The notes under the pieces were generated by a model, which was not told where the DNA came from, ran no database searches, and saw nothing but the letters and a program-made list of their open reading frames with translations. This document shows positions 10,345 to 40,833 of a DNA stretch of 64,000 bases, piece after piece (the stretch's first letter is position 1; the number at the start of each line of letters is the position of its first letter). This DNA comes from Longimicrobiales bacterium (GTDB taxonomy: Bacteria > Gemmatimonadota > Gemmatimonadetes > Longimicrobiales > Gaopeijiaceae). The position numbers and the translations under genes were made by a program. Location: positions 192,001 to 256,000 of the forward strand of contig CBDCNQ010000004.1 of the NCBI GenBank assembly GCA_965219445.1, in the 5' to 3' direction.

Positions 10345-11508
10345 CTAAGAGCAGGCCCTCCGGCGGTCGTCGAGGGCCTTCCTGAGCTGGTCCTCGTCGG
10401 CCCGCTGGTAGCACTGGAGCACTGTTCTGGCCGTCTTCCAGCCCCCAAGCTCGCACAGCACCTTGAGCGGCTGGTCCATGAGGTCCGAAGCGAACTTCCG
10501 CCTCAGCGAGTGCCAGCCTCTGCGGTGCTTCGGCTCCAGCCCCGCGAGCCTCTCCGCTCTCCTCCACCAGGAGCGCGCCCGCCCGGAGCGCACGCACGTC
10601 GAAGGATTCCCGGGCGCGGGTAACACAAGCGCGTCGCCGATCCCAGGGTTCCTCTTTCGCGCCTCTTCCAAGACGACGATCGCCTCGATGGTCACCGGCG
10701 TCCGGTGTTCGTAGCCCGACTTCTCGTGCTCCACGCGCCACCGCACCACTCTTTCTTCGAAGTCGATGTCCGACCACCGAAGCTGGCGGATGGCACCGAT
10801 GCGGTGACCCGTCTCGTGCGCGAGCACGAGCGCGACACGAAACCGCCAGTCGACCTGGCGGGACACCTCTAGAAGCGCCTGGTATTCCTCCTCCACGAGG
10901 ACGACCCGGGTCGGGTTCTTCTCCTTGGGCGTCTTCAGACCCTGCAGCGGGTTCGAATCGAGGAGCAGGCGGCCCTGCTCGTCCCTCGACTTCGCGGCCC
11001 AGTTGAGGATCGCCAGCAGTAGCTTCAGGTCCTGTTGGATTGTTCGATCCGATACGGGCCTTCCGCTCGGGCCGACCCGGCCCGCCCGTCGTTCCCTGAT
11101 GAACCTGTCCCAGTCGCGCTGGGAGAGCGTTGCCGGGCTGCGGTCCCGTCCGAAGAACCCAAGGAACATCCGCATCGCGGCCCTGTCGTGCCGCCGCGAT
11201 TGCCTGCCCTTGGTGGGCGTCACCTCTTCACCGTAGATGTCAAAAAGCGTCTCCAGCGTGGGCGGCTCGGGCTCGGCTTCCGCTCCGCCCCCGATCTCCG
11301 GCCCGGCGAAGCCTGCGGCGAACTCGTCCGCCTGCCTCTTCGCCCGTGCCCAGTCGCGGTGCTTGAGCGATTTGCTCAGCCTGCGCCCGTTCTCACGCCA
11401 CTCGATCTGGAGCAGGCCGGTCTTGGGATCGGGAAACACCCGTACCCGGTTCCGGCCCCATTCGCCGGCGCCGTAACTGTGCCGGCTTCGTTTCGTGCGT
11501 GCCATCAT
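10345..11508 (-). CDS. Tyrosine recombinase/integrase (copy 1)
   Basis: HETGHRIG (R), WHSLRR (HxxR), LGGW and QCY (Y) catalytic motifs. Confidence 0.95.
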   Translation of the reverse strand: MMARTKRSRHSYGAGEWGRNRVRVFPDPKTGLLQIEWRENGRRLSKSLKHRDWARAKRQADEFAAGFAGPEIGGGAEAEPEPPTLETLFDIYGEEVTPTKGRQSRRHDRAAMRMFLGFFGRDRSPATLSQRDWDRFIRERRAGRVGPSGRPVSDRTIQQDLKLLLAILNWAAKSRDEQGRLLLDSNPLQGLKTPKEKNPTRVVLVEEEYQALLEVSRQVDWRFRVALVLAHETGHRIGAIRQLRWSDIDFEERVVRWRVEHEKSGYEHRTPVTIEAIVVLEEARKRNPGIGDALVLPAPGNPSTCVRSGRARSWWRRAERLAGLEPKHRRGWHSLRRKFASDLMDQPLKVLCELGGWKTARTVLQCYQRADEDQLRKALDDRRRACS

Positions 11509-13865: not shown

Positions 13866-14059
13866 CGAGGGTTGCGGCTCTCTCGTGCCCCCCCGCATCA
13901 TTTGACCAGTCCCCTCCTGAAAACTCTGAGCTGGCCCTTGTACCGTTACGCGAATCCTTCCATGACTCTCAACGCCGGTTGAAAATGTCACACATCGGGG
14001 GGAGGTGACGGGCCTCTAAGTCGTCGTCGTCTCCTTCGATGTTCTCCTCCTCTTGCGAG

Positions 14060-14305
14060 TGACCTGACCCCCTGAAACGAGACCAGGTGCAATGTTAGGA
14101 TCGACCTGGTGTGAAGCTTTTCAGCGAGGAGGTCAGGATGGGAAGGAAGCGACACACTCCGGAGCAGATCATCACTGCACTGCGGGAGGCAGAGGTCGGT
14201 CTGGCCCGCGGCAAATCCGTGAAGCTGATCAGCCGGGAGCTCGGCATCACCGAGCAGACGTACTACCGGTGGAGGCGGGAGTACGGCGGGATGAAGGTGA
14301 GCCAG
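14060..14305 (+). mobile_element. IS3-family left end plus orfA fragment
   Basis: TGACCTGACCCCCTGAAA end; MGRKRHTPEQIITALREAE...GITEQTYYRWRREYGGMK. Confidence 0.85.
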
Positions 14306-14419
14306 GGGCACGGCGCCTGCCTGCTCCGCTCACTCGGCGTGGGCGACGGCGGAGATCGCTCCTCCCTGCGAGGGCCGACCGACCGGGACCCGGCCGCGCT
14401 CGAGCTCTAGCCCGCCCCC

Positions 14420-14734
14420 ATGCAACCCTGGAAGATCAGCGCGGGGCTGACCGCTGCCCTAGCAGGCTCGGCCGTCCTACTCGCTGGGGCTCGTTTCAAG
14501 TATCTGGCGCCGTTCTGGCCACTGATCCTCTCGGACTATGGCGTTCTCATCGCCCTGCACCTGGGGTTGGCACTGACGGCCGCTCTAGCCGCCATCTACG
14601 GTGTCGCGCGAGCCGCCGGACTCGCCGACCTGGGGCGGCGCGTCGATCTCGTCGAGCGCTCCGTCCGGCGCGGCGAGGGCGATCCCGAGCTCGCCCGCGC
14701 TCTCAAGAGAGACGCCGAGGGCCACTGGGACTGA
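14420..14734 (+). CDS. Small membrane protein of the ICE family
   Basis: Two hydrophobic helices; 3' half repeated at ~56050-56222. Confidence 0.6.
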   Translation: MQPWKISAGLTAALAGSAVLLAGARFKYLAPFWPLILSDYGVLIALHLGLALTAALAAIYGVARAAGLADLGRRVDLVERSVRRGEGDPELARALKRDAEGHWD

Positions 14735-15279
14735 ACGCGGGGATGAATCCTCCTTCGACGGTAGTCCTCGGAAGTCTGCAAGGCTCATTCAGGCTTCGTC
14801 TGCACGGTCCGCGTTCCCCCCAGCCTTGTTCGAGAGAGGAAGCCTCCCGTGTTCCTCGAAAGCGCCCTGGGCGCCGGTGGGCTGAAGGGGAGGCGAAGCC
14901 AGATCACGGATGGCGCGGGACGGGGCCGGGTGCCACGCAAGTACCGTGATCAGCTGTGCGCCAACGTTGGCGAGGTCGTCGAACTCGTCGTCGAGTTGCT
15001 CCGCTTTCAGAGTTGGCGGGCGGAAGGAGAATAGAGATGCCGGAAACCAGACAGAGCAAGATTGGTGTTACGATATTCAGCGCTCGCGATCGAACGTTCC
15101 GGGCGGTGGCTGAATCCTCAGGGCCCACCTCGATGACCATGAACCGGTTGCCCAAATCAGAAAAGCAGACTAAACAAGTACACGCTCCCGAGCCACCACC
15201 TTCAACTGTCAGCAGGACACCATCCTCATGCAGGTCAGATACGTCGATGGACCACGGTAGCGGTGCGCGCCCGGCGGTG

Positions 15280-15475
15280 TGCGACTACGCGCGGTATCAG
15301 CGGGCCGAGCTCAACCGAATCAACGTGTTCCCGGTCCCGGATGGGGATACGGGCACCAACCGCGCCCTGACGGTTCAGGCGATCGCGGACCATCTCCGGC
15401 CGGGTTGTTATCGAGAGGCCTCGGCCGTAGCGTACGAGGCCACCCATGGTGCGGCTGTCGGAGCTCGCGGGAAGG
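15280..15475 (+). pseudogene. DAK2-domain (FakA/DegV-associated) gene fragment
   Basis: ELNRINVFPVPDGDTGTN and GARG motifs; short and lacking start and end. Confidence 0.75.
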
Positions 15476-15593
15476 TGATCACATTTCCTTGTTGATCCTC
15501 TGGATCTCGTGGTCCCCTCGCGCCGTCGGATCAGAGCAGGTCGAACGCATGAAGCCTGTGGTCTTCACCCGTGCCTGTGGATTGGGTCGTTGA

Positions 15594-16178
15594 ATGCCGA
15601 TTCCAGCTTTTGACTTTGACGGCGTTCTCCCGCCCTTTGTAGGTGTGCAAGGGCCAGGTGGCGTACCTACAGATATGTCTCCCTACGTCGCCACGGCATT
15701 GGAGGTCGCCAGTGGCTTTGGAGGCACTGCAGGGCGCCGGACCATATTGCGTGGGTGGCTTGGCCATCGAGCCGCGATGCGTGCGGCTGGATTTGACCGG
15801 GGCTTTCAGTGGCTAGACGGCAGCTTCGTCGAGGACAAGGAACCGCGTGATCTTGATCTCGTAACCTTCCTCTACCGTCCGCGGAAGGTCCACGACCCTG
15901 CCGCGCTTACGGCTGTGATGTCCGCAAATCCAGACCTTTTTCTAAGACCGCGCGTTCGTCAAAGGTACAGCCTCGACTCATTCCCGATCGACCTAGATGG
16001 ATCGCCCGAAGGCATTGTCGCAACATCATGTTACTTTCTTGGATTATTCTCCCATCGGCGTGCCGACAACCGTTGGAAGGGCACGATTCAGGTGCGACTT
16101 GAGGATCCCAACGACGACACCGCAGCGTTGGGAGCACTCGATTCAAGCCCAGCGGAGCAAGAAAGGAATCCCCAATGA
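15594..16178 (+). CDS. DUF6932-like Pol-beta superfamily nucleotidyltransferase
   Basis: IPAF...GVLPP start; WLDGSF...EPRDLDLV (GS + DxD) motif. Confidence 0.7.
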   Translation: MPIPAFDFDGVLPPFVGVQGPGGVPTDMSPYVATALEVASGFGGTAGRRTILRGWLGHRAAMRAAGFDRGFQWLDGSFVEDKEPRDLDLVTFLYRPRKVHDPAALTAVMSANPDLFLRPRVRQRYSLDSFPIDLDGSPEGIVATSCYFLGLFSHRRADNRWKGTIQVRLEDPNDDTAALGALDSSPAEQERNPQ

Positions 16179-17116
16179 CCAGCCAGCGTAAGTTGGAGCG
16201 CGACCTCCTCCATGCAGATATGGCCGCTGTTAACACGTTGCTGGACCAGCTCGATGAGGAAGATGTGATGACGCGCTTCGGTCTGGAGGCCCGTCGCGAC
16301 GAGCTGCGCGACTTAATCTCGGCGTCGGAGGCGGAGCCGGAGGAAGCAACCGCGTCCGCAATTCTCTTCTTCGGGGGCCGGCCTGTGACCGGAACCCGCG
16401 GGATCGAGAGCGAGTTCGCGTGTCTGGCGGTGAGCAAATTTCAAGATCTCGTCGCAAAGATGACAGCGCAGAAAGCCGGCACTCTTGGTCAACGGGGCGT
16501 GGTGCCGAATAAAGGCTTTTCGACGCTGCACATCACGAACATAACCCGCGGGTCAATCGGGTTTGTTCTGGAGGAAGTGCAACCCCAGACGCAGCACATC
16601 GGCGCGCCGCTTAAAACTTCGGTGAATGAGGCAATGCAGTTGCTCGATGCCTACGGCGAGGCAGACGAAGTGCAATTTCATCACGCCGTCGAAGCGATGA
16701 ATCAGCGCGTGCTTGGCACCACACGAGATTTTTTTGAACTAATGCGCGAATGCGGGGCGACGTTGCGTCTCGTCGCGAACGAGTCGGAATGCAGCCTCGG
16801 CTCAGAGGCCGTCATGCGTGCGGCTGAGCGGGCGAAGTTCACGACGACAGAAGAGGCCGAGGAGATTATCGTAGGCCAATTGGCCGGCGTGTTGCCTACC
16901 GCCCGTCGATTCGAGTTCCGCACCCGTGATGCCCGTGGAGTTATCAACGGGAAGGTCGACAGTGCGCTTACCGCCCATGTGCTCGCCCACCTTGGCCGCA
17001 AATGGGTAGATGTTGACGCGCATGCCCGGATTGTGGTGAAGCGGGTATTTCGCAAGGATGCTGTGGTACGGGAGAGCTACACGTTAATGAACTTGGTGGC
17101 GCCGACTAGCGCTTGA
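16175..17116 (+). CDS. Hypothetical protein translationally coupled to the nucleotidyltransferase
   Basis: ATGA overlap; N-terminal coiled coil, LFFGGRPV.G.RGI motif, beta-rich C-terminus. Confidence 0.75.
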   Translation: MTSQRKLERDLLHADMAAVNTLLDQLDEEDVMTRFGLEARRDELRDLISASEAEPEEATASAILFFGGRPVTGTRGIESEFACLAVSKFQDLVAKMTAQKAGTLGQRGVVPNKGFSTLHITNITRGSIGFVLEEVQPQTQHIGAPLKTSVNEAMQLLDAYGEADEVQFHHAVEAMNQRVLGTTRDFFELMRECGATLRLVANESECSLGSEAVMRAAERAKFTTTEEAEEIIVGQLAGVLPTARRFEFRTRDARGVINGKVDSALTAHVLAHLGRKWVDVDAHARIVVKRVFRKDAVVRESYTLMNLVAPTSA

Positions 17117-17131
17117 GGGCGGAGACATCGG

Positions 17132-17464
17132 TCAACCGCACCAGACCACTCTGCCCTCCCGGAGCCAGAAGTGCGACCGACAGCCGGTACGCCGCCACAC
17201 CGATGGCAAAAGGCTGGGACGACCGCGATGATCGATAGAGAGTGACCATCTTGGCCGCGCTTCGGGCGCGACCAGCAGTTCAATCGTTTCGCCGCATCCG
17301 CATGGGCAGCCCATGCCTATGCTCCAATCCTCCTGATCTTCGCACGTGACGATGAGATCGCGACGTGGCAGGATGGATGGCAGCATATCGCCGTCGATAA
17401 CCCGCATGCGCCGTCGCGGAAGGATCCCTTCCTTGGCATTGCGCCACCACCGGCGCAGTATCAT
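17132..17464 (-). CDS. DUF6527-family Cys/His protein
   Basis: CPCGCG...W...PSLLPSVW...GCRSHFW..G.V.W. Confidence 0.85.
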   Translation of the reverse strand: MILRRWWRNAKEGILPRRRMRVIDGDMLPSILPRRDLIVTCEDQEDWSIGMGCPCGCGETIELLVAPEARPRWSLSIDHRGRPSLLPSVWRRTGCRSHFWLREGRVVWCG

Positions 17465-18861
17465 GACGGCACCTTGACACCGGGGTTAGCGAGCGCGGGC
17501 AGTCCAAGAAGAGGTTCACGGGCCCCGCAGCCCAGAAGCGGATTGGGACTTATCTCGAAAGCATCCTCGCTGAAAAAATCTTCGTCGCCAGCTGCCAGAC
17601 TAAACTGCGTACGCGCATAGTTGCGATTGGGGTCGAGGCGAAAGGGGTAGGCTCGCAGGATGAACTCATTCATGCAGGCTGCCGCCGCCCGCATGTTTAG
17701 GGAGATTACGGCTGGCGCCTCTTCAATCGCCCCCTTGATATAGCCCGCTTCGACTTCTTGAGCGTGAGCATCAGGCGCCACGGATCGGAGATATTCGGCG
17801 CGCAACCTCTCCGGGGTATAGACCTTGCGATCGCCGAGGGTGGCGCCGCCGGGCTGGACATAGTCGATACGTCCGACCGCGTCGATGATGGCGATGGCGG
17901 ACTCCGCATTTCGGACCGGAATGACGACGCCGACATCGAACAACGGCAACACGAAGGCAGCAGCGATCAGATCGGCTAAATGTCGGGCCTCCAGCGTATC
18001 GACACAGCAGAACATTACATCGCCTTGGCTAGCGGCGAGCACAGCGTCCCGTGTATTGATCGGTGCGATGACCGGGGTGGCGATGCCCGGTCCTCGATAG
18101 GTGGTGATGGCCTCGGCGAAAGCGTCGGACTTGAACCGTCGGGCTACGACGTCCGCCAGCGTAGCGTTAAGGATGCGGTTGAGATTGCGCTGCTTTATGC
18201 GATCGAAATCGATCAGCGTCACGCCACCGAAGCCGAGCCGGGCGGCCTGTTCGGCTTGGATCGATCCCGTGCCGGAAACGCCGATGATGATGGCAGTCAG
18301 CCGCCCGAGTTCGGCGGTCATACCGCTCGTGAAGGCCACCGGGCGTGCGCCTGTCTCCACCGACAAAGACTCGTCGTTCCACCAAAAGTGGATATCATCG
18401 CCCGCGCTGGTTACGAGGTCGACGGGACGCGGAGCCATATCCGAGTCGTAAAGCCGAGCGCGCATGGCACCGCTGGGAATCATGATCGCGGAGCCATGCC
18501 AATCACCATAAGCCTGAAACAGCGATTCGATGGTTATGAGGTCGCTCTTGTCGTCGGCTTCAGAAAAGGCGAACAGCCCGCCGGGATGCGAATGCAGCAG
18601 GATGAGGCAGAGCCCTTCGGCCTCGCCACGATCGATCGCTTCTTCAAGAAACCGGCCGGGCCAAGTGATGGCATCATGCCCCCGATGGGCGCAGGCATCG
18701 TAGGGAATGGGAATGATTTCGCGCACGAGCAGCCGCAGACGCGGGCCCGGTGTCCGGGCGCACAGAAGGATCGTGGCGGCCTCACAACCATCGCCCGGAA
18801 AGAGGTGGCAATGCGCCTGTGTATGAGTCGTCCCGGCCAGCGCGAGAGTCGTCGAAATCAT
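17461..18861 (-). CDS. JAB/MPN peptidase fused to ThiF/E1-like adenylating domain
   Basis: E...HSHPGG...FSEADD JAB motif; GVSGTGS, DFDRIKQRNLNR and CVD ThiF motifs; ATGA overlaps at both ends. Confidence 0.9.
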   Translation of the reverse strand: MISTTLALAGTTHTQAHCHLFPGDGCEAATILLCARTPGPRLRLLVREIIPIPYDACAHRGHDAITWPGRFLEEAIDRGEAEGLCLILLHSHPGGLFAFSEADDKSDLITIESLFQAYGDWHGSAIMIPSGAMRARLYDSDMAPRPVDLVTSAGDDIHFWWNDESLSVETGARPVAFTSGMTAELGRLTAIIIGVSGTGSIQAEQAARLGFGGVTLIDFDRIKQRNLNRILNATLADVVARRFKSDAFAEAITTYRGPGIATPVIAPINTRDAVLAASQGDVMFCCVDTLEARHLADLIAAAFVLPLFDVGVVIPVRNAESAIAIIDAVGRIDYVQPGGATLGDRKVYTPERLRAEYLRSVAPDAHAQEVEAGYIKGAIEEAPAVISLNMRAAAACMNEFILRAYPFRLDPNRNYARTQFSLAAGDEDFFSEDAFEISPNPLLGCGAREPLLGLPALANPGVKVPS

Positions 18862-19970
18862 TCTCCCACCTCCTTGGTGAGAGCCGCCTCGACCAAGCCG
18901 ATCTGGGACACGACGTTGTCGGTTGCGGGATCCCACGGCGCAGTTGGCCCTCGATGGCGCGACCAGCCATGAAATTCGAAGCCGAGCAGCGTACCGCGAA
19001 GCTGAGTCCTGGGGATAGTGCGGCCCGATGCCAGCGCCAGCGGCGGATACACGTAGAAGCCATAGATCGCCGCCCCCGGATAGGCCGGTGGAATCTCCAG
19101 CGCCAGCATGGTGTGCGCGAGGGTGTAGCCTGCTGGCACCGGAAAGTGCCGGATGAGCAGCCATCGCCGATTAGCATCAACGATCGTCTCCCACTTGAGC
19201 TGGAGGCGGTCGAGATAGGCGGTATCAATGTCCAGCAAACCGAAGTCGCGGCGAGACGCCGGAGGCGCCTCGCCATTGTCGACATTGCGTGGTGTGAGCC
19301 GAAGCTTCTCAATGCCAGGCGTCTCAAGGTCGAGAACATCCGTGAGGCTCACCTCGCGCTTCGTCTTGCCCGCCACCTTGAAGAAGATGTGCCACGGCTT
19401 GCTGGTGTCGAAGCCGGCCTGTTCCATGGCGGCGCTCACGGTAATGGTGCGCGTCGTCACTTCAATCACCACGCCGTGGACGTTGAGCTTCCACGCGGCC
19501 TTGCGGGTGATGAACGATTCGATGCCGTCCATGTCTAGATCGACAAGGTCATCGGCGCCAATGAGCTGATCGGGATAGTCTACCCGCTCCAGATACAGCA
19601 ACTTGTCTGCCGAGATCAAAGCGAGCTTGCGAAGCAGCCCGCCGCTCACAACGCGGCAGGACCAGTCGAAGCGTTGCCCGTCGATTGACAGGAGATAAAC
19701 GCGATCGCTGGCGACGATCACGAAGCGACCGTCATGGTGACGCAGGTCGACGACCTCCTCGAGACGGATGGTCTCGAGCGCGCCGTCCGCGAGGACCTGG
19801 AGGATGATCGCGGTATCGGGGGACTTGAAGCCAGCGGCCCGCGCGAGCTGCGCACCTGTTGGTGTCAGATCATCGATCTTGACGGCTCGGTAGGCCAGCG
19901 TCTCGTCGGCGATGGCGATGCTACGATGGTCTTTACCGCAGCCAAGCGCGGTGTCTGCAATGTCGGACAT
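18858..19970 (-). CDS. Multi-ubiquitin (three Ubl-like repeats) fused to prokaryotic E2-like domain
   Basis: Three repeats ending VDL...F / LDL..PGIEK; linker NVDNG; E2-like P.GY...IPPAYP...WSRH. Confidence 0.85.
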   Translation of the reverse strand: MSDIADTALGCGKDHRSIAIADETLAYRAVKIDDLTPTGAQLARAAGFKSPDTAIILQVLADGALETIRLEEVVDLRHHDGRFVIVASDRVYLLSIDGQRFDWSCRVVSGGLLRKLALISADKLLYLERVDYPDQLIGADDLVDLDMDGIESFITRKAAWKLNVHGVVIEVTTRTITVSAAMEQAGFDTSKPWHIFFKVAGKTKREVSLTDVLDLETPGIEKLRLTPRNVDNGEAPPASRRDFGLLDIDTAYLDRLQLKWETIVDANRRWLLIRHFPVPAGYTLAHTMLALEIPPAYPGAAIYGFYVYPPLALASGRTIPRTQLRGTLLGFEFHGWSRHRGPTAPWDPATDNVVSQIGLVEAALTKEVGE

Positions 19971-20007
19971 AAATCCTCCTAAGTGTCGCCGGCTCCATTG
20001 CCGGTGA

Positions 20008-20072
20008 TGCTAAATTAGAATAGCTTGCCAAGTACGTCAAGCAGCCTCTTCGCAAGCTTGCTGCGTTTAGCA
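20008..20072. promoter_or_regulatory. Palindromic putative operator region upstream of the Ubl operon
   Basis: TGCTAAA (20008) / TTTAGCA (20066) inverted pair and GCAAGCTTGC palindrome (20052-20061). Confidence 0.4.
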
Positions 20073-20085
20073 ATGGGATATAAGA

Positions 20086-21305
20086 TGAATTGCCTCCGTG
20101 TGGTGGACCCCTAGGTCTCTTGGGAGAAAGGAGTTCAGCATGGGAAGAACGAGACCGGCATACCCACCGGAGTTTCGGGAGCAGATGGTGGCGTTGGTGC
20201 GGGCGGGGAGGAGGCCGGAGGAGCTGGCTCGGGAGTTTGAGCCTTCGGCCCAGTCGATCCGCAACTGGGTGGTCCAAGCTGATCTGGATGAAGGGCGAAG
20301 AACTGATGGGTTGACGACCCAGGAGCGCGAGGAGCTCCGGCGCCGGATCAGCGTAAGAGTTCGTGAGAGCCAATCAGGCGAGCTTCCCGGTGCGGCTGAT
20401 GTGCCAAGTGCTGGGCGTCTCCCCCAAGCGGGTACTGTGCGTGGCGCCGTCGAGGGCCTTCGCCGAGAGAGCGGTCACCAACGGGCGACTGCGTGAGCGG
20501 ATGCGGGAGATCCACCGGTCGAGCCACGAGACGTACGGGCGGCCTCGGATGCAGGCGGAGCTTCGTGACGCGTGCTGGGGGGTCAATCACAAGCGTGTGG
20601 CCCGTCTGATGAAGCTCGAGGGCCTCGAGGGTGCGAGCCGTCGCAGAAAGTGGCGTACGACGAAGCGGGCCAAGGACGTACGGCCCGCCCCGGATCTGGT
20701 CGAGCGAGACTTTCTGGTGAGAGGTCCGGACCGGCTCTGGGTGGCGGATGTGACCTACCGTGCCCACCTCGAGCGGGTTCCTGTACCTGGCGGTGGTGAT
20801 GGATGCCTGGAGTCGGCGGGTGGTGGGCCGGTCGATGGAGACGCACCTGAGGACGGAGCTCATGCTCGGGGCGCTGAACATGGCGATCTGGCAGCGACGG
20901 CCCGAAGCGGTGGCCCACCACAGAGACCTGGCCAGTACACGTCGACCGCCTTCGGGCTGCACTGCAAGGAGGCGGGTGTGAGGCCCTCAATGGCCTCGGT
21001 GGGCGATGCCTACGACAACGCGATGTGCGAGAGCTTCTTCGCCACGCTCGAATGCGAGCTGATCGAGCGGAAGCGGTTGCGGAGCCAGGCTGAGGCAAAG
21101 ATGGCTGTGTTCGACTTCATCGAGGGCTGGTATAACCCGCGACACAGACACTCGGCCCTCGACTACGAGTCGCCGATCCACTTCGAACGGCGGAGTGAGG
21201 CTGCCTTCTACTCCCCCGCCGCGCGGGGGAAGCTCCTCACTTCCCACAGCTAGGGGAGGAGTGACAATCCCAGTTCTTACCTGTCCACTCAAAAGGGACA
21301 GCTCG
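20086..21305 (+). mobile_element. Degenerate IS3-family element (orfA truncated, orfB frameshifted)
   Basis: IRs TGAATTGCCTCC..GTGGAC / GTCCAC..GGGACAGCTCG; YPPEFREQMV, WVADVT, YDNAMCESFF and WYNPRHRHSAL spread over several frames. Confidence 0.9.
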
Positions 21306-21353
21306 AAGGAATATAGTTCCGATTCTGCATCCGATTCTCAGAGAGGAGGCCAC

Positions 21354-21737
21354 ATGAGCGATACGCCAGACGTAGGTGCGGGAAAGCCAAATAGGCTAGG
21401 CCAATATCTCAATAGCGTCCGACGCGGTCTTGATCTTTCACTCAGGGACGTCGAAGAAACGACGGGAAAGGAAGTCAGCAATGCCTATTTGAGCCAGCTC
21501 GAAACTGGCAAGATCCGGAAGCCTTCGCCACATATTCTCTACGCTCTGTCTACAGCACTCGCCGTCCCTTACGAGGATCTCATGGAGCGTGCAGGCTATA
21601 TCGCACCGAACCGCGGGAGACCCGAAGGCTCAAAACATGGGAGTGCAGCGACCTTCGCGATCGAGGACCTAACCTCCGACGAGGAAAAAGCGTTGCTTGA
21701 ACATCTCTCCTACATTCGGTGGCAAAGCAACAAATGA
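21354..21737 (+). CDS. XRE-family HTH transcriptional regulator (CapH-like)
   Basis: LSLRDVE..VSNAYLSQLETGK..PSP..L; RBS GGAGG. Confidence 0.9.
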   Translation: MSDTPDVGAGKPNRLGQYLNSVRRGLDLSLRDVEETTGKEVSNAYLSQLETGKIRKPSPHILYALSTALAVPYEDLMERAGYIAPNRGRPEGSKHGSAATFAIEDLTSDEEKALLEHLSYIRWQSNK

Positions 21738-22642
21738 GTCGTCGACCGGACGACTGCTCCTTGAGCTTGGCTCAACTGGCGAAGGTCCGCAAAGAGGCCG
21801 AGCGCTCTCTACGGGAAGCAGATGTGCTCGGCGTCCTGCCGACACCTATCGACCACATCCTCGCTGTAGCGAAGGTAGAGGAGGTAAAGGACAATGTGCT
21901 TGATGAAGGCTTCCTTACCAAAATGCGCACGAAGGCAGGTGGTGGTGCACTCAAGCGAGCTTTATCCAAGGTCATGGGAGTTTTCGACGCCGTCGCTGGC
22001 CTCGTCTTTGTCGACCAGCTTCTGCTGCCGGTAAAGAAGCGATTCGTGACGTTACACGAAGCGGGCCACGGATTCATGCCGTGGCAACGCGCGATGTACA
22101 AGATCGTTGAGGATTGTGCTCAGACACTCGATCCTGAAGCGGCAGATCTTTTTGACCGTGAAGCGAACATGTTCGCCTCGGAAGTGCTCTTTCAGAACGA
22201 TACCTTCTACGACTTGGCTGCGGACGAGAAGTTCGAAATCTGGACGCCGATACGACTTGCGAAGAAGTTCGACGCCTCCCTCTATTCGTCTATCCGCCAA
22301 TATGTCTCAAAGAACGACCGGCGCTGCGTTGTCCTTGTACTACACCCGCCCAAACTTGCTGAAGGCGATGGATTCCGGGCAACGCTTCGACGCGTCATTG
22401 CCTCGAATGCCTTTACGAAGGCATTCGGTGATTATCCCTGGCCGTCAGCCTACACGCCAGATGACCAACTTGGGTGCCTAGTGCCGATTGGCAAACGCAA
22501 ATCATCCGGGAAACGCGAAGTCGTACTCATTGATCGGAATGGAGATCGGCATGAGTGCATCGCCGAGTCTTTCACCCAGACACACCAAGTGTTCATTCTT
22601 ATCCATGCAGTAAAGACACTTGGGCCAGCCGTGGCTTTGTAG
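21734..22642 (+). CDS. ImmA/IrrE-family metallopeptidase (CapP-like)
   Basis: RFVTLHEAGH (HExxH) and EANMFASEVL; ATGA overlap with the HTH gene. Confidence 0.88.
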   Translation: MSRRPDDCSLSLAQLAKVRKEAERSLREADVLGVLPTPIDHILAVAKVEEVKDNVLDEGFLTKMRTKAGGGALKRALSKVMGVFDAVAGLVFVDQLLLPVKKRFVTLHEAGHGFMPWQRAMYKIVEDCAQTLDPEAADLFDREANMFASEVLFQNDTFYDLAADEKFEIWTPIRLAKKFDASLYSSIRQYVSKNDRRCVVLVLHPPKLAEGDGFRATLRRVIASNAFTKAFGDYPWPSAYTPDDQLGCLVPIGKRKSSGKREVVLIDRNGDRHECIAESFTQTHQVFILIHAVKTLGPAVAL

Positions 22643-22655
22643 TCTCCACGAGCGG

Positions 22656-24719
22656 TTACTCCAGCAACTTGAACACTCCGTCTTCCGCGTCCCTGTAGAA
22701 CTCGATGTTGACCTTGGTCCATACATCGTCCTGCAGGTTCATCAACTCGCGACGTGCCCCGACAGGCATCAGGAGCACGGCCGCCTGCTTGTCGACTGCC
22801 AGCTCCGCCATCGCAACCGGGTCCGGGACTTGCTCGAGCGACCCTCCCAAGTTCAGCGGGCCGACGACGATCGTTGCGCCGCGGGTCTTCCGCTCCAGTA
22901 ATCCGCTAACCATGGCCGCGAGCACTGGCAGCCCGAGCCCCCGGCCAGACTTGTCGTTGTCCCGAGGCTGCATCTGAACCGTGTACTGGTGCGCACGCGC
23001 ATCGCGGTCGCCTACCAACGTCTTTCCTGATGCGTAGAGGTTCTGGTGGCCTACGTTCACGCTCTCCCGAAACGCCGGAGGGATCGGCTGGTTCAGGATC
23101 TTCGCGGATCCGGGACCTGGTCCGACAGCCACTTCGATGCGGTAGAGCCCCGGCCCGGTACCTTCTACTCCGGGCCCGATCGCCCACACCTGCCCAGGAG
23201 GCAGCGGGTCTCCGTCAATCGCCTCGTCGCTCCGGAGCTCCGGCGTAGCCACAAACTGCTCCGTACCGTCAACTCCCAGAGTGTACGAAAAATGGGTGCT
23301 TCGGAACTCCGCCTTGAGGCACCGTTTCTGTTGCTCCTTCACGCGGCGGCGGGACTCCAGGGCGACTCGCACCATCCATTCGAGGTCGTCGTCCTCCACC
23401 TCCATCTCCGGGTCCGGCAAGAGGAGCTTGATGAGACCAGAGATTGTCTTGTGCACCGCCTCGATGTCCCGTCCAGACAGCGCGCCACCCCAGAACACCC
23501 GATTCTGGAGAATGGGGAGGCGCGTGGTGTCGCGAAGCTTGGTCCAGCACGCGCTCAGGAAGTCATTGACCAGACCGAAGTGGTCGGTGAGGTGCTCGTT
23601 TGGGTTGAGTTTGGGGAAGTCCCAGCCGGGAGCGTAGGAGTGGATCCGGTCGTGGAAGGCCGTGTCGTCTCGCATCTGCGTAGGGAGCGGGCTCAGCAGG
23701 TGTCCGATGCGCTGCTGCTGCTCTACCGAGACATCGAAATTGCCGACGAGGACCAGAGAACCTTCCGCACGGATGCTCTCCTTGCCCCGGCTGAACTCGC
23801 CCGACGCCATGTAGCCCTTCATGATATTGACGCCGTCCTTCTGATCGAAGGAGATGCCGGCGACCTCGTCGAAGCACAGCACATCGTACTGGCAGACCAG
23901 GCCACGCTGTCCGTTCGCCATGTTCACGAACATCTTGGCCACGGTGGCTTTCCCGCCCGACAGCAAGTGGGAGTACGGAGACAGCTGCTGGTAGACGTGG
24001 CTCTTGCCGGTCCCTCGCGGCCCGAACTCAACGAAGTTGTAGTTGCGTTCGACGAAGGGGATGAGGCGCAAGAGAACGACTCGCTTGGCTCGTTCGTCCA
24101 GCGCCGAGGGCTCGAGGCCCGTGGAGCGGACGAGAAAATCCATCCACTCGGCCGTGGTGAAGGAGCGCCGCCCCTTCGCCAATACTTCGAGGACCGATGG
24201 GTTCGACATCTGGATGGGCCGCATGTCAGCGACACTGAACGGCCGACCGTTCTTCTCCTGTGCGATCACCGCGTCGTACGCCAACGTCACCTCGGCGTAG
24301 AATCCGTCGGCCAGTATCCGTTCGTTCTCGGTAACGACTTCGCTGGCGATCCGGATGTCCCGAAGGCCGAGGCTGGGCAATTCGGCGATGTAACAGTCGT
24401 TCTTGGCATCGAGGCGGGCACGCACGATGTCGATCAGGCGCACCGAGCCCTGCTCGCGGGCGCGCGACTTGAACACTTCCTGCTCGGCGGACCGGACCGT
24501 GCGGCCTTCGAGCTGTGTCTTCACGATCGCGAGACCTTCGTCGATCTCGTCCTGATCGACGCTAGCGCAGTAGCGGCCCAGCAGGAATTCGACGACGTAG
24601 GTAGGGACGGGGTACTGCCGAGCGTAGCGCCGCACGAGATCTTTGCGCACCAGGTAGCCCGGGAACGCTTCGTTGGCCTTGCGGTCCAATGCGTCCATTT
24701 GAAACTCCGGTGCGCTCAT
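22656..24719 (-). CDS. brxL: BREX Lon-like ATPase BrxL
   Basis: VPTYVVEFLLGRYC, GPRGTGKS Walker A, FDEV Walker B, C-terminal Lon-like domain. Confidence 0.93.
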   Translation of the reverse strand: MSAPEFQMDALDRKANEAFPGYLVRKDLVRRYARQYPVPTYVVEFLLGRYCASVDQDEIDEGLAIVKTQLEGRTVRSAEQEVFKSRAREQGSVRLIDIVRARLDAKNDCYIAELPSLGLRDIRIASEVVTENERILADGFYAEVTLAYDAVIAQEKNGRPFSVADMRPIQMSNPSVLEVLAKGRRSFTTAEWMDFLVRSTGLEPSALDERAKRVVLLRLIPFVERNYNFVEFGPRGTGKSHVYQQLSPYSHLLSGGKATVAKMFVNMANGQRGLVCQYDVLCFDEVAGISFDQKDGVNIMKGYMASGEFSRGKESIRAEGSLVLVGNFDVSVEQQQRIGHLLSPLPTQMRDDTAFHDRIHSYAPGWDFPKLNPNEHLTDHFGLVNDFLSACWTKLRDTTRLPILQNRVFWGGALSGRDIEAVHKTISGLIKLLLPDPEMEVEDDDLEWMVRVALESRRRVKEQQKRCLKAEFRSTHFSYTLGVDGTEQFVATPELRSDEAIDGDPLPPGQVWAIGPGVEGTGPGLYRIEVAVGPGPGSAKILNQPIPPAFRESVNVGHQNLYASGKTLVGDRDARAHQYTVQMQPRDNDKSGRGLGLPVLAAMVSGLLERKTRGATIVVGPLNLGGSLEQVPDPVAMAELAVDKQAAVLLMPVGARRELMNLQDDVWTKVNIEFYRDAEDGVFKLLE

Positions 24720-27076
24720 GTGGTGTCTCCCGCGCGGGTCGGCTTCTGGGCGAGAATGCGGCCATCCGGATCGGTTACGACCACGACCAGAGCGGCGTCA
24801 GCGTGCTGGTCGTCGGAGAGAACCAGGCTGACGAGCCCGTCTTCGTCGATTCGCTTAGGTGAGGAAGCCACAGATTGCCCCGCGGGGCTACCGAGCCGCA
24901 GGTCGGCGCTAAGCGGGCCGCCCCGTACCTCGACGTTGACGTTGCAGCGGAACCGAAGCCAGGAGACGTCCCGGATTGTGGCAGCGGCTCCGCCCTCACC
25001 CGCACTTTCCACGCGAATGTCCGGTATGAGGCACTCTTGGACGCTGAGCCCACCGTGAGCGTACTCGTCCCTCTTGCTGAAACAGGCGATACCGGGCGGT
25101 GTCGCGAACGACTCGTTCGGGTCCCAGTGCCAAGAGTGGAGGGGAGCGTCGGGCCTGGAATCGCCGGAGATGACGGCGCAGCGCGCCCACTTGGACGCGG
25201 TGAGGTGCGTCGGGAGGCTGACCATGGGCAATCCGCCGGGGAGCAGGAGCCAGCCGTGGTCGGTAATGACGCGAACCGCTCGCCAGCCGGCCTTGAGCAG
25301 GTCGTTGATGCGGCGGGCCAGGCACCGCAGTTCGTCGTCCAGCAGGCGGGCGAATAGCACCCCATCGGCGTGGTGGCCGTGCTTGTCGATTTCGCCGGTC
25401 TCCATCCAGCCGCGTGGTCCGGCGTCCATCGGAAACTCGAGGGTATCGCCGACGATCTGATAGCCGCGACCCTCCATGGCTCCCCGGAGCTCCTTCTGGT
25501 CCGCCGCCCGGCCCGTGCCCCGCATCACGGGACGGAAGTCCGGACCCAGGCCGTCACCGGCGATGTCACGAGCGGCGGGAGTGACGGCTGGCTTGGCGGT
25601 GGCGGTCACCGTCGGGATCGCAGCCCAACGGTGTCCGGTGGTGGTCCTACAACCCGATCCCTCCAGGCGCTCGACCAAGCGGCGCCCAAGCTCGTACCTG
25701 AGTCCGTCGACGAAGACGACGCACTCGCCTTCGCCCGCAACGACGACGGGTTGGTCGCCGGCGGAGGGGAGCGGCTGCCGGTCCAGTGACGCTTGAAAAG
25801 CGCGAGCAGAATCATCCAGCCAGGACTCAAGCAGATGCCGGACGGCATCGGCGACCGTTTGCTCATACTTGTCAGGGGCCAGGGCGAGGGCCTCCCGGGC
25901 ACTCGCGTCCGCGAGCCAACCGCGATCTGCGTACGCTCGGGCAACATCGTCCGGTGTCGCACCGCCGAGCCTGGTGCGCGCCGACTCCGCGAGCCGGGCC
26001 AGTGGTTCAAGGACCCGGGCGAATGGCGAGCGCCCAAGCTTCGCCCACACCCAGTCCCGGCGGTCACGGTGTTCGGCCTCGAGTCGGACGACCGTTTCGC
26101 AAGCGTCTCCGTGCAACTGTGACTGGAGATCAGCCAAGGCATTCCGTACGGTCTCCTCGTCCTCGTCGTTCTGATCCGGCCACCGTTCACGATGGAGAAC
26201 GAGTTCGCCAACTGGCCGGGCCCGCACAAGCACCTCACCCACCTTGGGAAAGCTATTCGGTGCCTCAGAAAACCGGGTCCAGACATCAGCCCACCGACCC
26301 GCGCCCTCGCCCAGTTTGGCGGCAGCCGATACGTCCGCTTCCGTTGCCGGATCGAACTTAAGTTCCTGACGGCACTCTGCGCGGAATGCCTTCCAACCGC
26401 TGGCCCCCAATTGGGCACGCGCGCCCTCCGGGTCGGCCATCCACCGGAGGACGTCGCGCATCACGTCAACCCCAGCCATGCGGTTGAAGTCGGCGGCGTC
26501 CAGCCGACGGCCTCGGAGTTGGTCCATCGGGGCCAGGAGCACTTGGTCAAGAACTCCCAGCAACGCGGCCGTCGTACCCTGATCGGTCGCAATGTCGAGA
26601 CCCGCTCCTTTGGGTGAGCTGAGGAAGGCCGTTGCACTCCAGTCGCGACCATTGGGGTGGTGCCAAACGATGCCTCGGTAGAGGAGCTCCACGAGCGGTT
26701 TGAGCTCGTCGGGACAATCCTCGCCAGCCCTCAGTTGATCGCGTTCTACTCCGGGGAGGTAGATGATCGGGGTGTGATCTCTAGCGAAGCCAGGAAAATC
26801 GATCGTTCCGTCGATCACGCAGCGGAGCCAAATTGCCGGCCCTGTGCGTTCCTCAGGACGGTAGTCGCCGAGCACTAGCAGTTCAGGAATCTCGGCCCGC
26901 GCGACCGACAAGAGCCGTCGCCATTCCTCTTTCGGGTCCGTCCAGAGAACAGCGACGGGCTCGTCTTCGCCGCTCCGGACTGAGGCCCGACCCCGCAAGC
27001 TCTCGATGAGGTAATCCATGGGCCGGGAAGGACCCTTTCCCGTGCTACCGCGTGCCGCCATATGAGCTGCCGTCAC
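24716..27076 (-). CDS. pglZ: BREX phosphatase PglZ
   Basis: FVDGLRY, PTVTATAK, ITDHGW and YAHGGLS.QE motifs; start could be 27061 or 27019. Confidence 0.92.
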   Translation of the reverse strand: MTAAHMAARGSTGKGPSRPMDYLIESLRGRASVRSGEDEPVAVLWTDPKEEWRRLLSVARAEIPELLVLGDYRPEERTGPAIWLRCVIDGTIDFPGFARDHTPIIYLPGVERDQLRAGEDCPDELKPLVELLYRGIVWHHPNGRDWSATAFLSSPKGAGLDIATDQGTTAALLGVLDQVLLAPMDQLRGRRLDAADFNRMAGVDVMRDVLRWMADPEGARAQLGASGWKAFRAECRQELKFDPATEADVSAAAKLGEGAGRWADVWTRFSEAPNSFPKVGEVLVRARPVGELVLHRERWPDQNDEDEETVRNALADLQSQLHGDACETVVRLEAEHRDRRDWVWAKLGRSPFARVLEPLARLAESARTRLGGATPDDVARAYADRGWLADASAREALALAPDKYEQTVADAVRHLLESWLDDSARAFQASLDRQPLPSAGDQPVVVAGEGECVVFVDGLRYELGRRLVERLEGSGCRTTTGHRWAAIPTVTATAKPAVTPAARDIAGDGLGPDFRPVMRGTGRAADQKELRGAMEGRGYQIVGDTLEFPMDAGPRGWMETGEIDKHGHHADGVLFARLLDDELRCLARRINDLLKAGWRAVRVITDHGWLLLPGGLPMVSLPTHLTASKWARCAVISGDSRPDAPLHSWHWDPNESFATPPGIACFSKRDEYAHGGLSVQECLIPDIRVESAGEGGAAATIRDVSWLRFRCNVNVEVRGGPLSADLRLGSPAGQSVASSPKRIDEDGLVSLVLSDDQHADAALVVVVTDPDGRILAQKPTRAGDTT

Positions 27077-27215
27077 TAGGGATTACTCGGCATCAGCGGA
27101 ATTTCCGGATCGTCGGGCGGCTTCCGAGCCGGAATAGCCGTGGCTGACACCTCGCCCGGATCTCCAAGGTGGACCCGCGAAGGCACAGGATCGATCGGGG
27201 CAAAAGACGACGGTG

Positions 27216-30200
27216 TCACTGTGGTAGCCCTCGGTGCTCTTTCTGCCGAGCCGCCACTTTCGAAGCCCCCGTGTAGTGCAGATCGTTCCAGCGCTTGCCG
27301 TCGAACGCGGCTCCGGCCGGAGCTCTGAAGTCTGTCCGCGCCTCCTGGCTCTCCGTGCCCGGACACCCCCAGAACCATGGGAAGGCCTCCCGGGGACGCG
27401 GCTCTCCGGGTTCGTTCCCCCGGTCCTTGCACCGCCTGATGTTGGGCTTCCATCGGAGGATTCCGGCACCGGCGCGCCCGCCCTTCCGCAGGTCGGCGCG
27501 CATGAAGGGGCGGATGTTCAGGCGGACGCCGTCGTCGAGGTCCGTGTCCCAGCCGATGGCCTGGGCGTGGAGCGGCTTCCAGCGGACAAAGACATCGCAC
27601 GGAGGCTCGCCTTCAAGGATGCGCTTGAGCTGCGCCTGAAGATCCAGCGCGTGAGCGAGGCGGTCGTCGGCTCCGGGGGTGTCGTCACGCTGTTCCGCCC
27701 GCTGCCGCTGGATCCAATCGTTCAGGTAGGCGTAGGCAAGCGATTCGAGCGTCCGTCGGCCCGTGCCGTCCGGCCCGGCAAGGTGGTGGTAGTTGACGAG
27801 CGCGTGGAATCCGTCCTTGCGGCCGTCCCAGATGTGCCAGAGGAAGGGACGGTTATGGAATAGCTGGCAGTGCTCCTCAAAAAATCGGTCGCGGAGCCAG
27901 TCTTCGAGGGACTGAGGCGGTTGTCCGCCTAGCGCGGAGGCGGCAAGAAGCCGGCGTTCGGTGGCGGAGGACCATTCCCCGCCATAAGCATGTGCAAGAA
28001 GCGCACGAAGACGGTCGGCAGCGCTGGGCTCACCCCGGGCGGCAGAGAGGCAGACGATCCCGTCCGCGTCGGCGAATTGGTCGTATGCACCGCCGCAGTC
28101 CGTGATGGCGCGCTGCTCGAAGGCGAGTCGCATCTCCGGGTCCCGCTCGGCGGGCCAGCGGTAGCCGAGCAGGCGGGCGACGGCGACTTGGAGAACGGTG
28201 CTGTCGAAACGGACCGGGCCGTGTGCGGTGAGCTTGGCGTCTTCGTCCCAAATGACGCTCCGGCAGGGGTCGCCGTGGAAGACCCACTGTGTGGGGTCGT
28301 CGGAATAGGGTTCGGGGAGACCGTTGGGGTAGCGTTCGGCGGCGACCTTGGTCCAGTGGTCGAGGTCGAAGGGGACTTTGACTAGGGTCGCCGCGGTGAC
28401 CTTCAGTGCTTGGTCGATTTGTCGCAGAGCAGTCTCATGCATCCCGGACTCACAGAAACACAATACAGCGGAGGCGTGACTCTCGTCGCGCGGAGCCAGT
28501 ACGCCGACATTGTCATCGAATACTTCGCCGCCGTAGGCGTAGGGTGTGAGTTCCCCTGTCTTCCTGACCGCCACTCCATCGCGCTCCCAGATACCGTGCC
28601 CGTGGATCCGGCATCCGGGCATGGCAAGGAGACTCGGATCACTCAGCGGTACCTTGGCTAGCAGCGACCGACCTGTCCACGGCGATGCCTTATCGTCTCC
28701 AGGAGAGTCTAGCCACTTCACAGACTTAGGCAGAATACGAGGAAGCTCCCAGTAGCGGAGCAAAAACCGGGGACGGTCACCCGTGGTACTGCCCTTCCCG
28801 TAATCCGCGATCAGGGAAAGCAGAGGATGATCCTCGAGCGGCTCTAGCAGAACCCGCGAATCCGGATTCCTGAGCTGCTCCGCTTGGACCGATCTCACCA
28901 CCTTCGCCTCCCCGCTCAGCAGTTCCGCCTTCTCGGCCGCCTTGATCGGGCGCTGCCCCCGCGGAGCCGACACGTCAACCCCTGCCATTTCCCACTCCGA
29001 ACCGGGACGGTCGGCCGACAGGATAGTCAGCGCGACGTTGACGACCTCGCCGCTGATCGTCTCGAACGCCCCGGAACCCAACCGCGCCACCACATTCCAC
29101 GTCCGCTCGTTGAGCAACCTCTCGCGCAGCTTCCGGTATGTCGTCAGGAACAGCCAGTTTTGTGGCGTCACGACCGCCTGCGTGCCGTGCTCGCTCAGCC
29201 ACCGGAAGATCCGCGACACAAAGACCGTCGCGATGTCGCCCTTGGCGTGCCCATGGTGCTCTTCGGCGAACTTCCGAAGTCGGCCGCTCTGCTTTCCCCT
29301 AGCCAGGAACGGCACGTTGGTGACTACAAGCGTGTAGCGGCCCGTTAGGATCTCGGCCGCGCGCGCCATGCCCGCCGCCGCCACGGCCCGTTCATCGCGG
29401 CCTGCGGCTCCCCCTTCCCGCCGGATCACGGCATCGAGCGGCTCCCGAAGGGATTCATACTCTGCCCCGAGTAGATCATCTCCCACGGCACCCGGGTCGA
29501 TCAGAGACCCCAGCTCGCGGGCCTGCCCGAAGAGACGGTGCAGCCGGGCCATCCCCTCCTGTAGCGGTCCCCGCGCGAGAGATGCCTTGCTACCGAAGAG
29601 ATCCGGGTCTTCCGCCAGCCCGGTGAACCCTTCCAGGCGGTCCGTCAACGCAACCCATTCGGCCTCGGAGGCCTCTGGTGCGATTCCCGAGCACGCGATG
29701 TTGAGCGGCGGCAGCCGGATCCACCCACCCGCCATCCGCCATGCCGCAAGCGCCACGTTGAACGCGGCGATCTGGGTGCAACGCGGATCGATCTCCAGTC
29801 CGAAGAGGTTGTCCGTCAGGACCGCGCGAATGGCATCGGGCACGGACAGCGCCTCGTCTTCCATCCGCAGCCGCACCAGAAGATCGAAGGCTTCGACCAG
29901 GAAGTGGCCGCTCCCGCAGCAGGGATCGAGAACGCGAAGGTCACGCACTGCTCGGGGCCAGTCCGGAAACGAGCCCGCCGCCGGGCACCAGGGTCCCGAG
30001 CGCTCGCCGTCCCGGTCTTCCGGAGCCTTGCCACACGCGAAGCGCAAGTAGGTGAAGTCGTATCCGCCGCTGGCCTCGAGGCGCATCCGCTCGCGAAGCG
30101 CATCTTCGCTCACGGCCGCGACCGCAAGTTCCGGGTCCTCCCCCAACACCTTGCCCGCACGCCACGCGCCTATGGTGTTGTGCAGGAGGAACAGCACTAT

Positions 30201-30510
30201 GTAGCGCTCGGTGAAGAGCTGGGTCACTGCAGGAAGCTCGTCCGCGCCGATCTTCTTGCCGCTGCTGTTGACCTGGTCCTTCTCGTCGGCTCTCCAGTAC
30301 TGGTAGGTCCAACCGAGCGAATCCTGCGCCGTGAAGACCGACTCGGGCAGCGACTCGAGAAGTGTTTCGAGCTTCTGCCGGGTCTCGGGGAGCAACGCCA
30401 CCTCGAGGACCGGATCATCCTGGCCGAAGATCTCCGGCAGCATCTTCTCTGCCCACTCTCCCGCCAACTGCCACGGACTGGCGCCCTCTTCGCGGGCCAG
30501 CTCCCTGTAT
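27216..30510 (-). CDS. pglX: BREX adenine methyltransferase PglX, apparently N-terminally truncated
   Basis: PAVTQLFTE.Y, VLDPCCGSGHFL, TNVPF, HNRPF.WH and DLDDGVR.N motifs; no recognisable native start. Confidence 0.88.
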
Positions 30511-30795
30511 GGTGGAGACAGGTCCGACCTGCTTGAACCATTCAATCCGAACCCGGTCAGACAGCTTCACGACCATCGTCTGGCGATCGGACAGCTTGGG
30601 GAAGCGACCGTTCCACCACTCGGAATTCCATACGGCTGCATCCCAATGTTCTTTGGGGCCGATGTCGACACGATCCCGCGCGTCGGACGGCGGATCGCAT
30701 GCCTCCTGCACGAGGGCGACATCCGCGTCCATTTTATGCAGCCAGCGCCATGGCTCCTTCTGATGGTTGGTGTTCCAGCAAACCACTTTCACCAT
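30510..30795 (-). pseudogene. Endonuclease/exonuclease/phosphatase N-terminal fragment
   Basis: MVKVVCWNT...DADVALVQEA EEP motif; runs out of frame into pglX sequence. Confidence 0.65.
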
Positions 30796-31639: not shown

Positions 31640-31774
31640 CGATCACGTCAAGTCGCTTCCGGCCCGAACGCCGCAACGGGCGGCGCGCCAACAACCACCC
31701 GTCTGGCGGAGATGCCTTCCCGGCGCGAAGTTTCAACCGTGCAGATCGTGCAGTCCATCATGGAGAGGAATCGA

Positions 31775-32938: not shown

Positions 32939-32956
32939 GATCCCAATCGGCGGGAA

Positions 32957-37748: not shown

Positions 37749-37766
37749 GACGGTCGCTCCCGGGGC

Positions 37767-40827: not shown

Positions 40828-40833
40828 GGCGTA

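Follow-up and report, generated by a model that had tools for sequence, protein, structure and literature searches.

A Type I Bub operon variant with a tyrosine-type E2-like domain and an IS-split CapH/CapP region in a Longimicrobiales bacterium

Type I Bub operons consist of BubAB, in which ubiquitin-like (Ubl) domains are fused to an E2, BubCD, in which a JAB peptidase is fused to an E1, and BubE, a DUF6527 protein. Structures from Citrobacter sp. RHBSTW-00271 (9EA4, 9EA5, 9EA8, 9EAE and 9EAV) are described in a preprint (PMC11601596). In the parts of that preprint available to us, the JAB domain of the Citrobacter orthologs cuts after a Gly, the Ubl part is built of beta-grasp domains, the E2 is Ser-based, and capH and capP accompany 168 of 544 Bub operons. 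Here we describe a related operon in a 64,000-nucleotide stretch of a Longimicrobiales bacterium (GenBank assembly GCA_965219445.1, contig CBDCNQ010000004.1, positions 192,001 to 256,000 of the forward strand), hereafter the window, from whose first letter all coordinates are counted. An earlier note made from the letters of this DNA had proposed JAB cleavage after Gly, a Ser-based E2 and an associated CapH/CapP pair, and all three agree with what is published. The Bub system, its chemistry and its pairing with CapH/CapP were already known; what sequence comparison appears to add here is a clade of Tyr-type E2 domains, an operator-like box and a seven-gene cassette.

The operon lies on the minus strand. 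bubAB (18858..19970, 370 amino acids) matches Pfam Multi_ubiq and Prok-E2_E as well as PDB entries 9d59, 9eav_D and 9ea8_B; bubCD (17461..18861, 466 amino acids) matches Prok-JAB and ThiF and PDB entry 9ea4; and bubE (17132..17464, 110 amino acids) matches DUF6527, all Pfam matches being above cut-off. Matches to the solved Citrobacter chains are full-length, with E-values of 5e-64 for BubA, 3e-27 for BubB and 1.2e-152 for BubCD (9ea4). The Type I complement of Ubl-E2 fusion, JAB-E1 fusion and DUF6527 protein is present by these matches, and all catalytic residues known from Citrobacter that were checked are found in the window proteins. By gene complement, then, the locus is a Type I Bub (6E.1/DUF6527) operon; because it lacks an Asp called invariant, its sequence files it as a Type I variant and not as a canonical Asp-His-Ser member. 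The earlier note's three ATGA-coupled genes hold up in coordinates and junctions (both bub junctions overlap by ATGA, as do capH and capP), and the motifs it picked out are all there: NVDNG with its Gly codon at 19272-19274, WSRH in an E2 without Cys, the HSH..D JAB motif, GGATLGD and CPCGC...CxxH. The bub open reading frames (ORFs), capH and capP are also open in a second genome, G007, with 0-2 substitutions per ORF relative to the window. There was no Rfam match in 14000-24000, no tRNA was found in the window, and none of 84 candidates (0/84) placed a BubAB relative in a viral contig with the two search patterns used.

The E2-like domain is where the window departs from the published motif. 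Alignment to 9eae_C puts Tyr303 (codon TAT, 19062..19064, minus strand) at the position of D299, which together with H335 is called invariant in Type I from an alignment of 107 (PMC11601596), and the next residue, Gly304, replaces M300. The loop H334-G-W-S337-R-H339 (18954..18971, minus strand) follows the published site more closely: S333, H335 and K358 of Citrobacter correspond to S337, H339 and K366 of the window, and H334 is typical of the clade described below. Of the Type I E2 features, the window protein thus has the absence of Cys and the presence of Ser337 and His339, and lacks the 'invariant' Asp. The available text of the preprint describes no D299 mutant of Citrobacter BubB, and S333 and H335 were changed there only as a double mutant (PMC11601596).

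Near homologs share this arrangement. Among the best 120 of 689 (one of them the window's own cluster), 112 carry Y303, G304 and H334, and the other eight carry D303, M304, N334 and H339. S337 is retained in 111 of the 112 Tyr-type proteins, and position 339 is N in 76, H in 29, Y in 6 and D in 1. The wider family, represented by the best 150 of 455 representatives from 50% clustering, looks different: at position 303, 131 have D, 8 have Y, 8 have a gap and 3 have another residue, position 339 is H in 129, and the combination D-Q-S-H occurs in 120 of the 136 rows that cover all four sites. Most of the family therefore follows the published motif, and Tyr-type proteins are a minority lineage. 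A quick tree of the E2 was built on 157 rows, from which 26 of the 150 representatives were dropped as short or without Ser and to which 32 of the 120 near homologs were added; in it, 28 of 29 Tyr rows fall on one branch (SH-aLRT 95) within the Asp types. P0149, a single Logan protein with Tyr-Gly and with Gln for His, stands apart from this main clade and is, judging from its sequence, a possible second origin of the Asp-to-Tyr type. A quick BubCD tree needs three changes of the Tyr/Asp label and is compatible with one origin.

We also compared whole loci. Our set of 88 (8 from genomes, and 80 of 208 from metagenomes) was gathered with patterns that favour close relatives, so its proportions are not family frequencies; it holds 54 Tyr-type loci, 31 Asp-type loci and 3 without coverage of site 303, which collapse at 95% identity to 41 Tyr, 24 Asp and 3 unassigned clusters. 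S337 is present in all 54 Tyr-type loci, as are the E1 Tyr374 (47/47 covered) and BubE S88/H98 (44/44 covered). Y303 is written with both Tyr codons, S337 with four codons and N339 with several, as expected for selection on the protein. The positions that best discriminate the two types lie in the E2 (303, 304, 324, 326, 334 and 362), and no BubCD or BubE position separates them fully. Carriers that can be named include a Terriglobia metagenome-assembled genome, Mesorhizobium sp. SP-1A, Nitrosomonas sp. Nm84, Paraburkholderia sediminicola and Methylomonas sp. BW4-1; the cultured Mesorhizobium sp. SP-1A has the whole Tyr-type cassette without the insertion sequence (IS) found in the window. In Table S1 (PMC11601596), the names Nitrosomonas, SP-1A and sediminicola are absent; entries there are gene ids only, so Tyr types are possible among them. 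We found no description of the Tyr-type E2 in the literature on Bub, a search that did not extend to the journal version (PMC12885553).

A sequencing error or private lesion at Tyr303 was considered and ruled out by the 112 of 120 homologs that share it, by the use of both Tyr codons and by contig X1-2, which covers the site with 0 differences (the source sample may be X1). In many Tyr-type operons that lack capH, a sigma-70-like gene lies upstream instead (L043:55-4843 and about 25 similar loci), along with a gene of ~200 amino acids and a fusion of M78 peptidase, UvrD helicase and PD-(D/E)XK nuclease. Many large plasmids of enterobacteria, 220-455 kb in size, carry BubAB homologs of 46% identity (plasmid hits H2-H32).

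The other parts of the pathway follow the Citrobacter pattern. Residues ~15-233 of BubAB are read as three beta-grasp Ubl domains and residues 234-370 as the Cys-less E2, the only Cys residues of the protein being at positions 11 and 105. The three repeats that the earlier note had read from the sequence are weak when the protein is aligned to itself (shuffled sequences reached the scores in 252, 24 and 3 cases out of 500, and Pfam sees two stretches); the three-domain reading stands because residues 15-233 align without gaps to the solved Citrobacter Ubl3 (E 5e-64). All seven Ca2+ ligands known from Citrobacter (D30, T32, E62, E68, D85, D130 and E147) recur at +4, as D34, T36, E66, E72, D89, D134 and E151. 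Gly233 (codon 19272..19274, minus strand), the counterpart of G229 and Gly in 120/120 homologs, marks the predicted JAB cut, NVDNG|E.

In BubCD, the JAB site E27/H90/H92/D103 corresponds to Citrobacter E28/H91/H93/D104, with HSH at 90-92. The Citrobacter E1 has no crossover-loop Cys and instead requires an invariant crossover-loop Tyr, Y370, according to the preprint (PMC11601596). Its equivalent here, which the earlier note had overlooked as the replacement for Cys, is Tyr374 (codon 17740..17742, minus strand), a Tyr in all 70 loci that cover it; R229 matches R227, GGATLGD, which the earlier note placed in the usual CxxC region of the ThiF domain, stands at 338-344, and there is no Cys between residues 286 and 396. 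BubE residues C53, C55, C57, C95, S88 and H98 correspond, by spacing and by eye, to Citrobacter C57, C59, C61, C99, S92 and H102, of which the four Cys are predicted to make up a structural Zn site, whereas the Ser-His dyad cleaves Ubl fusions and removes conjugates, as far as the preprint text goes (PMC11601596). A PDB search with BubE gave chance matches only. A DUF6527 role as adaptor or in transfer may still apply; the journal abstract of the Bub paper reportedly gives BubE a role in Ubl-target conjugation and is said to tie one Bub pathway to translation control under stress. A second JAB-like/ThiF fusion with 27% identity to BubCD was seen at L013:1958-3755 (G000:C5:50957-52754, minus strand), preceded by a 125-amino-acid WSH-motif protein, with a divergent sigma-70 region-4 gene and a TIR-like gene downstream; this locus has no BubE or BubAB match.

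Divergent from the operon lie a capH-like XRE repressor gene (21354..21737, plus strand; Pfam HTH_3, PADLOC capH E 1e-6) and a capP-like M78 peptidase gene (21734..22642, plus strand; Pfam Peptidase_M78, PADLOC capP E 3e-12), both with Pfam matches above cut-off, giving the CapH/CapP architecture of XRE helix-turn-helix (HTH) protein and HExxH...E peptidase. CapP carries H108-E-x-x-H112, E143 and the pair D127-C128, with C128 kept in all 30 homologs covering it; D127-C128 is likely the cysteine switch described for CapP (bioRxiv 10.1101/2022.04.27.489752; 10.64898/2026.05.16.725639, each as far as available to us). Pfam GAF has no match in this protein. The earlier note had rightly recognised the divergent pair; it had missed a 1,220-bp IS3-family element that separates the pair from the operon.

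The region between bubAB and capH holds two putative operators. An 18-bp box (20026..20043, minus strand), of predicted function, overlaps a putative bub -35 (20035-20040; putative -10 at 20012-20017) and scores 22.4 bits with a matrix trained on capH loci, from which the window was left out; it is the top site in the window, the next best reaching 6.5 bits. A second, degenerate box (20055..20072, plus strand), its function likewise predicted, overlaps a putative capH -35 (20058-20063) and scores 5.6 bits. Two inverted 18-bp boxes, each over a TTGACA-like -35, are common to 35 distinct intergenic regions, and upstream of 32 of 32 loci without capH the matrix gives at most 5.6 bits. The conserved box thus appears confined to capH-bearing loci; we did not find it described in the literature on Bub, and it offers a ready substrate for a CapH binding assay. 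A strict scan of 19900-21420 detected no sigma-70 consensus promoter.

The gap between bubAB and capH measures 1,383 bp in the window, as compared with 144-254 bp in 38 related capH loci (capH ends taken from tblastn). It is filled by the decayed IS3-family element (20086..21305, plus strand; 1,220 bp), which has an orfA fragment, a frameshifted orfB and matches to Pfam HTH_Tnp_1, HTH_21 and rve_2/3. Its ends are complementary at 13 of 23 positions, it is flanked by AAGA and AAGG, and relative to a 74%-identical copy elsewhere in the genome it shows two deletions and about ten small indels. Locus L001, whose BubAB is 81% identical, aligns to both IS flanks. G007 is the only other carrier among 61 genomes searched, the window's own included. 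The two boxes and the two putative promoters are all on the bub side of the IS, and 48 bp remain between the IS and capH. We infer from this layout that the IS has spared the bub promoter and box but separates capHP from its ancestral promoter, which makes damage induction in the window strain uncertain.

An assembly artefact was ruled out as the source of the IS, given its presence in G007 and contigs of three runs, X1, X2 and X4, that bridge each junction, with no IS-skipping join listed. No RNA data set was listed as carrying the locus. The seven-gene cassette also occurs, with an Asp-type E2, on a plasmid of Bradyrhizobium septentrionale (L094, NZ_CP147712.1); its intergenic region there measures 163 bp, and neither box is damaged.

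We consider it most probable, at about three chances in four, that the operon carries out the published Bub chemistry through a Ser E2 that is remodelled yet active, under a CapH/CapP control possibly altered by the IS. From the conserved residues, and by analogy to what was shown for the Citrobacter orthologs, the BubCD JAB domain would cut BubAB after Gly233 and the E1 domain would adenylate the freed tri-Ubl. Tyr374, and then E2 Ser337, would be needed for transfer of the Ubl to target lysines, by proposed oxyesters. The Ubl would assemble into Ca2+-dependent filaments, and the BubE Ser-His dyad would act on its C-terminus and lower conjugate levels. Ser337 would still be the carrier, activated without the Asp-His pair through a remodelled pocket of Tyr303, Gly304, Gln323 and His334. 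CapH would bind the 18-bp box over the bub -35, and CapP, activated by single-stranded DNA, would cleave CapH. In the cell the system probably serves in the response to stress from DNA damage or infection. The earlier note's proposal of a defence pathway goes further than the published record, in which, for the parts covered, no Bub operon is demonstrated to protect against phage (PMC11601596; restated in PMC13373217, EMBO J, 2026).

Several observations weigh against this account. With the 'invariant' Asp absent, and the His too in most clade members (29 of 112 keep it, the window E2 itself among those retaining H339), E2 activity is not to be assumed outright. W336, R338, R340 and G341 are conserved to the same degree as S337, so that conservation of the Ser could be structural, and H334, found in 51/54 Tyr-type and also 2/31 Asp-type loci, is not universal to the clade. 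On the regulatory side, the scores of at least 25.3 bits in 28/28 capH loci are circular because the same loci trained the matrix; when the whole genome was searched by pattern, the box and a reversed control each turned up once; and in the window the second box is degenerate, as is the -35 of capH. In the Tyr clade the Asp is lost and the His relaxed together, and apparently again in P0149 outside it, which would fit an E2 that is no carrier and serves as scaffold or target adaptor, with E1 Tyr374 handing the Ubl directly to the target or to BubE Ser88. We think this improbable, since 111 of 112 proteins retain S337, as do all 54 loci with four synonymous codons, no compensating fixed change is seen in BubCD or BubE, and BubE removes conjugates in the preprint as far as covered (PMC11601596).

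The earlier note had assigned DUF6527 another part, that of providing the catalytic Cys or Zn module which the E1 lacks. Its four conserved Cys and its constant place beside the E1 could suggest as much. Citrobacter BubCD and BubB nevertheless conjugate without BubE and need Y370, and BubE activity maps to S92/H102, both conserved in the window BubE, in the preprint text available (PMC11601596); with the Cys accounted for as a predicted Zn site and the Ser-His dyad as the active part, we give this idea hardly any credence. An alternative that touches regulation only, and is compatible with the chemistry, is that the switch is broken in the window strain: the IS would have cut capHP from its promoter and left the operon constitutive or silent. 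The conserved boxes and putative promoters all on the bub side of the IS, with 48 bp before capH, the decay of the capH-side box to 5.6 bits and the absence of a sigma-70 consensus promoter from the scanned 19900-21420 point that way. The IS has, however, collected about a dozen indels while capH, capP and the bub genes stayed open in both genomes, which suggests that the insertion is tolerated; it also runs in the direction of capH, and a scan found no plus-strand terminator in it, so read-through to capH is possible. A broken switch seems to us possible, if rather unlikely.

Beyond the preferred reading of a remodelled but active Ser E2, we tentatively raise a bolder one: that this cross-phylum clade has rebuilt its E2 centre, with Tyr303/His334 replacing Asp-His around the Ser or Tyr303 taking part in a Tyr-to-Tyr/Ser relay, and that the capH-regulated cassette of seven genes, among them a nucleotidyltransferase-like pair, could encode a target or effector. 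If true, this would be a third way to activate an oxyester E2, perhaps with other target or acceptor chemistry. A clade that naturally lacks the Asp, and in most members the His as well, provides a direct test of how a serine E2 is activated.

Convergent with the bub operon are two further genes. A DUF6932 protein (15594..16178, plus strand) has a GSF..DxD nucleotidyltransferase-like motif and a PADLOC match to PDC-M63A (E 3e-8); weak leads from the atlas, with a score of 0.82, point to Pol-beta nucleotidyltransferases. It is ATGA-coupled to orf313 (16175..17116, plus strand), which encodes 313 amino acids of no known family and ends 15 bp from bubE. PDB searches with profiles of both proteins gave no match, and a literature search found no paper naming 'DUF6932'. 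Among the 43 loci whose downstream sequence reaches 3.6 kb or more, 11 have the pair. At 95% clustering, 37 of 68 clusters have sufficient flank, and the pair is present in 10 of the 17 that carry capH and in 0 of the 20 that do not, kin among these not being independent. It accompanies both E2 types and the Bradyrhizobium plasmid copy, and orf313 has four further plasmid hits. From this distribution the pair seems to ride with the capH-bearing cassette, an association we did not find described in the literature on Bub; it may be an independent hitch-hiking module, and it is also a candidate partner for the Bub pathway.

The cassette appears to sit on a defence island resembling an integrative and conjugative element, as suggested by the tyrosine integrases and VirB-like genes around it: several of the former, with VirB6/VirB10/VirB9/VirB4-like genes, lie at 10345-11508, 31712-34834, 36738-43467 and 56662-57825. 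More than 15 near-full-length copies of the island's integrase are present in the genome. BREX type-1 pglX, pglZ (type B) and brxL (22656-30545, minus strand) end 13 bp from capP, with integrase genes upstream. Further along, a reverse transcriptase of the group II intron kind (48813-50315) splits Calx-beta/Fn3 surface-protein ORFs (45908-53528, minus strand).

Among known systems, the operons called Bil (for bacterial ISG15-like) share Ubl, E2, JAB and E1 components with the window. They differ from Bub in their Cys thioesters, separate genes, lack of DUF6527 and proven anti-phage activity, in the parts of the preprint covered (PMC11601596); neither catalytic Cys in E1 and E2 nor separate genes are found in the window operon. 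With the Ubl3 filament-forming proteins (PMC11601603, in part; 9D59, 9CD2, 8U38), BubAB shares, as judged by sequence, three beta-grasp domains and the seven Ca2+ ligands, and we found no difference at that level. Known CapH/CapP pairs, as far as their descriptions were available, likewise combine a divergent XRE HTH protein with an HExxH...E peptidase of ~300 amino acids that has an internal conserved Cys. The window CapP, though, is distant from solved CapP in sequence (E 0.09), its Cys lies 20 residues after the first His as against 17 in E. coli and Thauera CapP, and the pair is parted from the putative shared promoter by the IS. Closest of all is the Citrobacter Type I Bub operon, with which the window shares gene order, fusions, the cleavage Gly, the JAB residues, the E1 Arg and Tyr, the E2 Ser, His and Lys, and the four Cys and Ser-His of BubE. 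It differs from Citrobacter in having Tyr-Gly for Asp299-Met300, in a clade with mostly Asn at the His335 position and a His three residues before the Ser, in a regulatory region split by an IS3 remnant, and in the attached DUF6932 gene pair.

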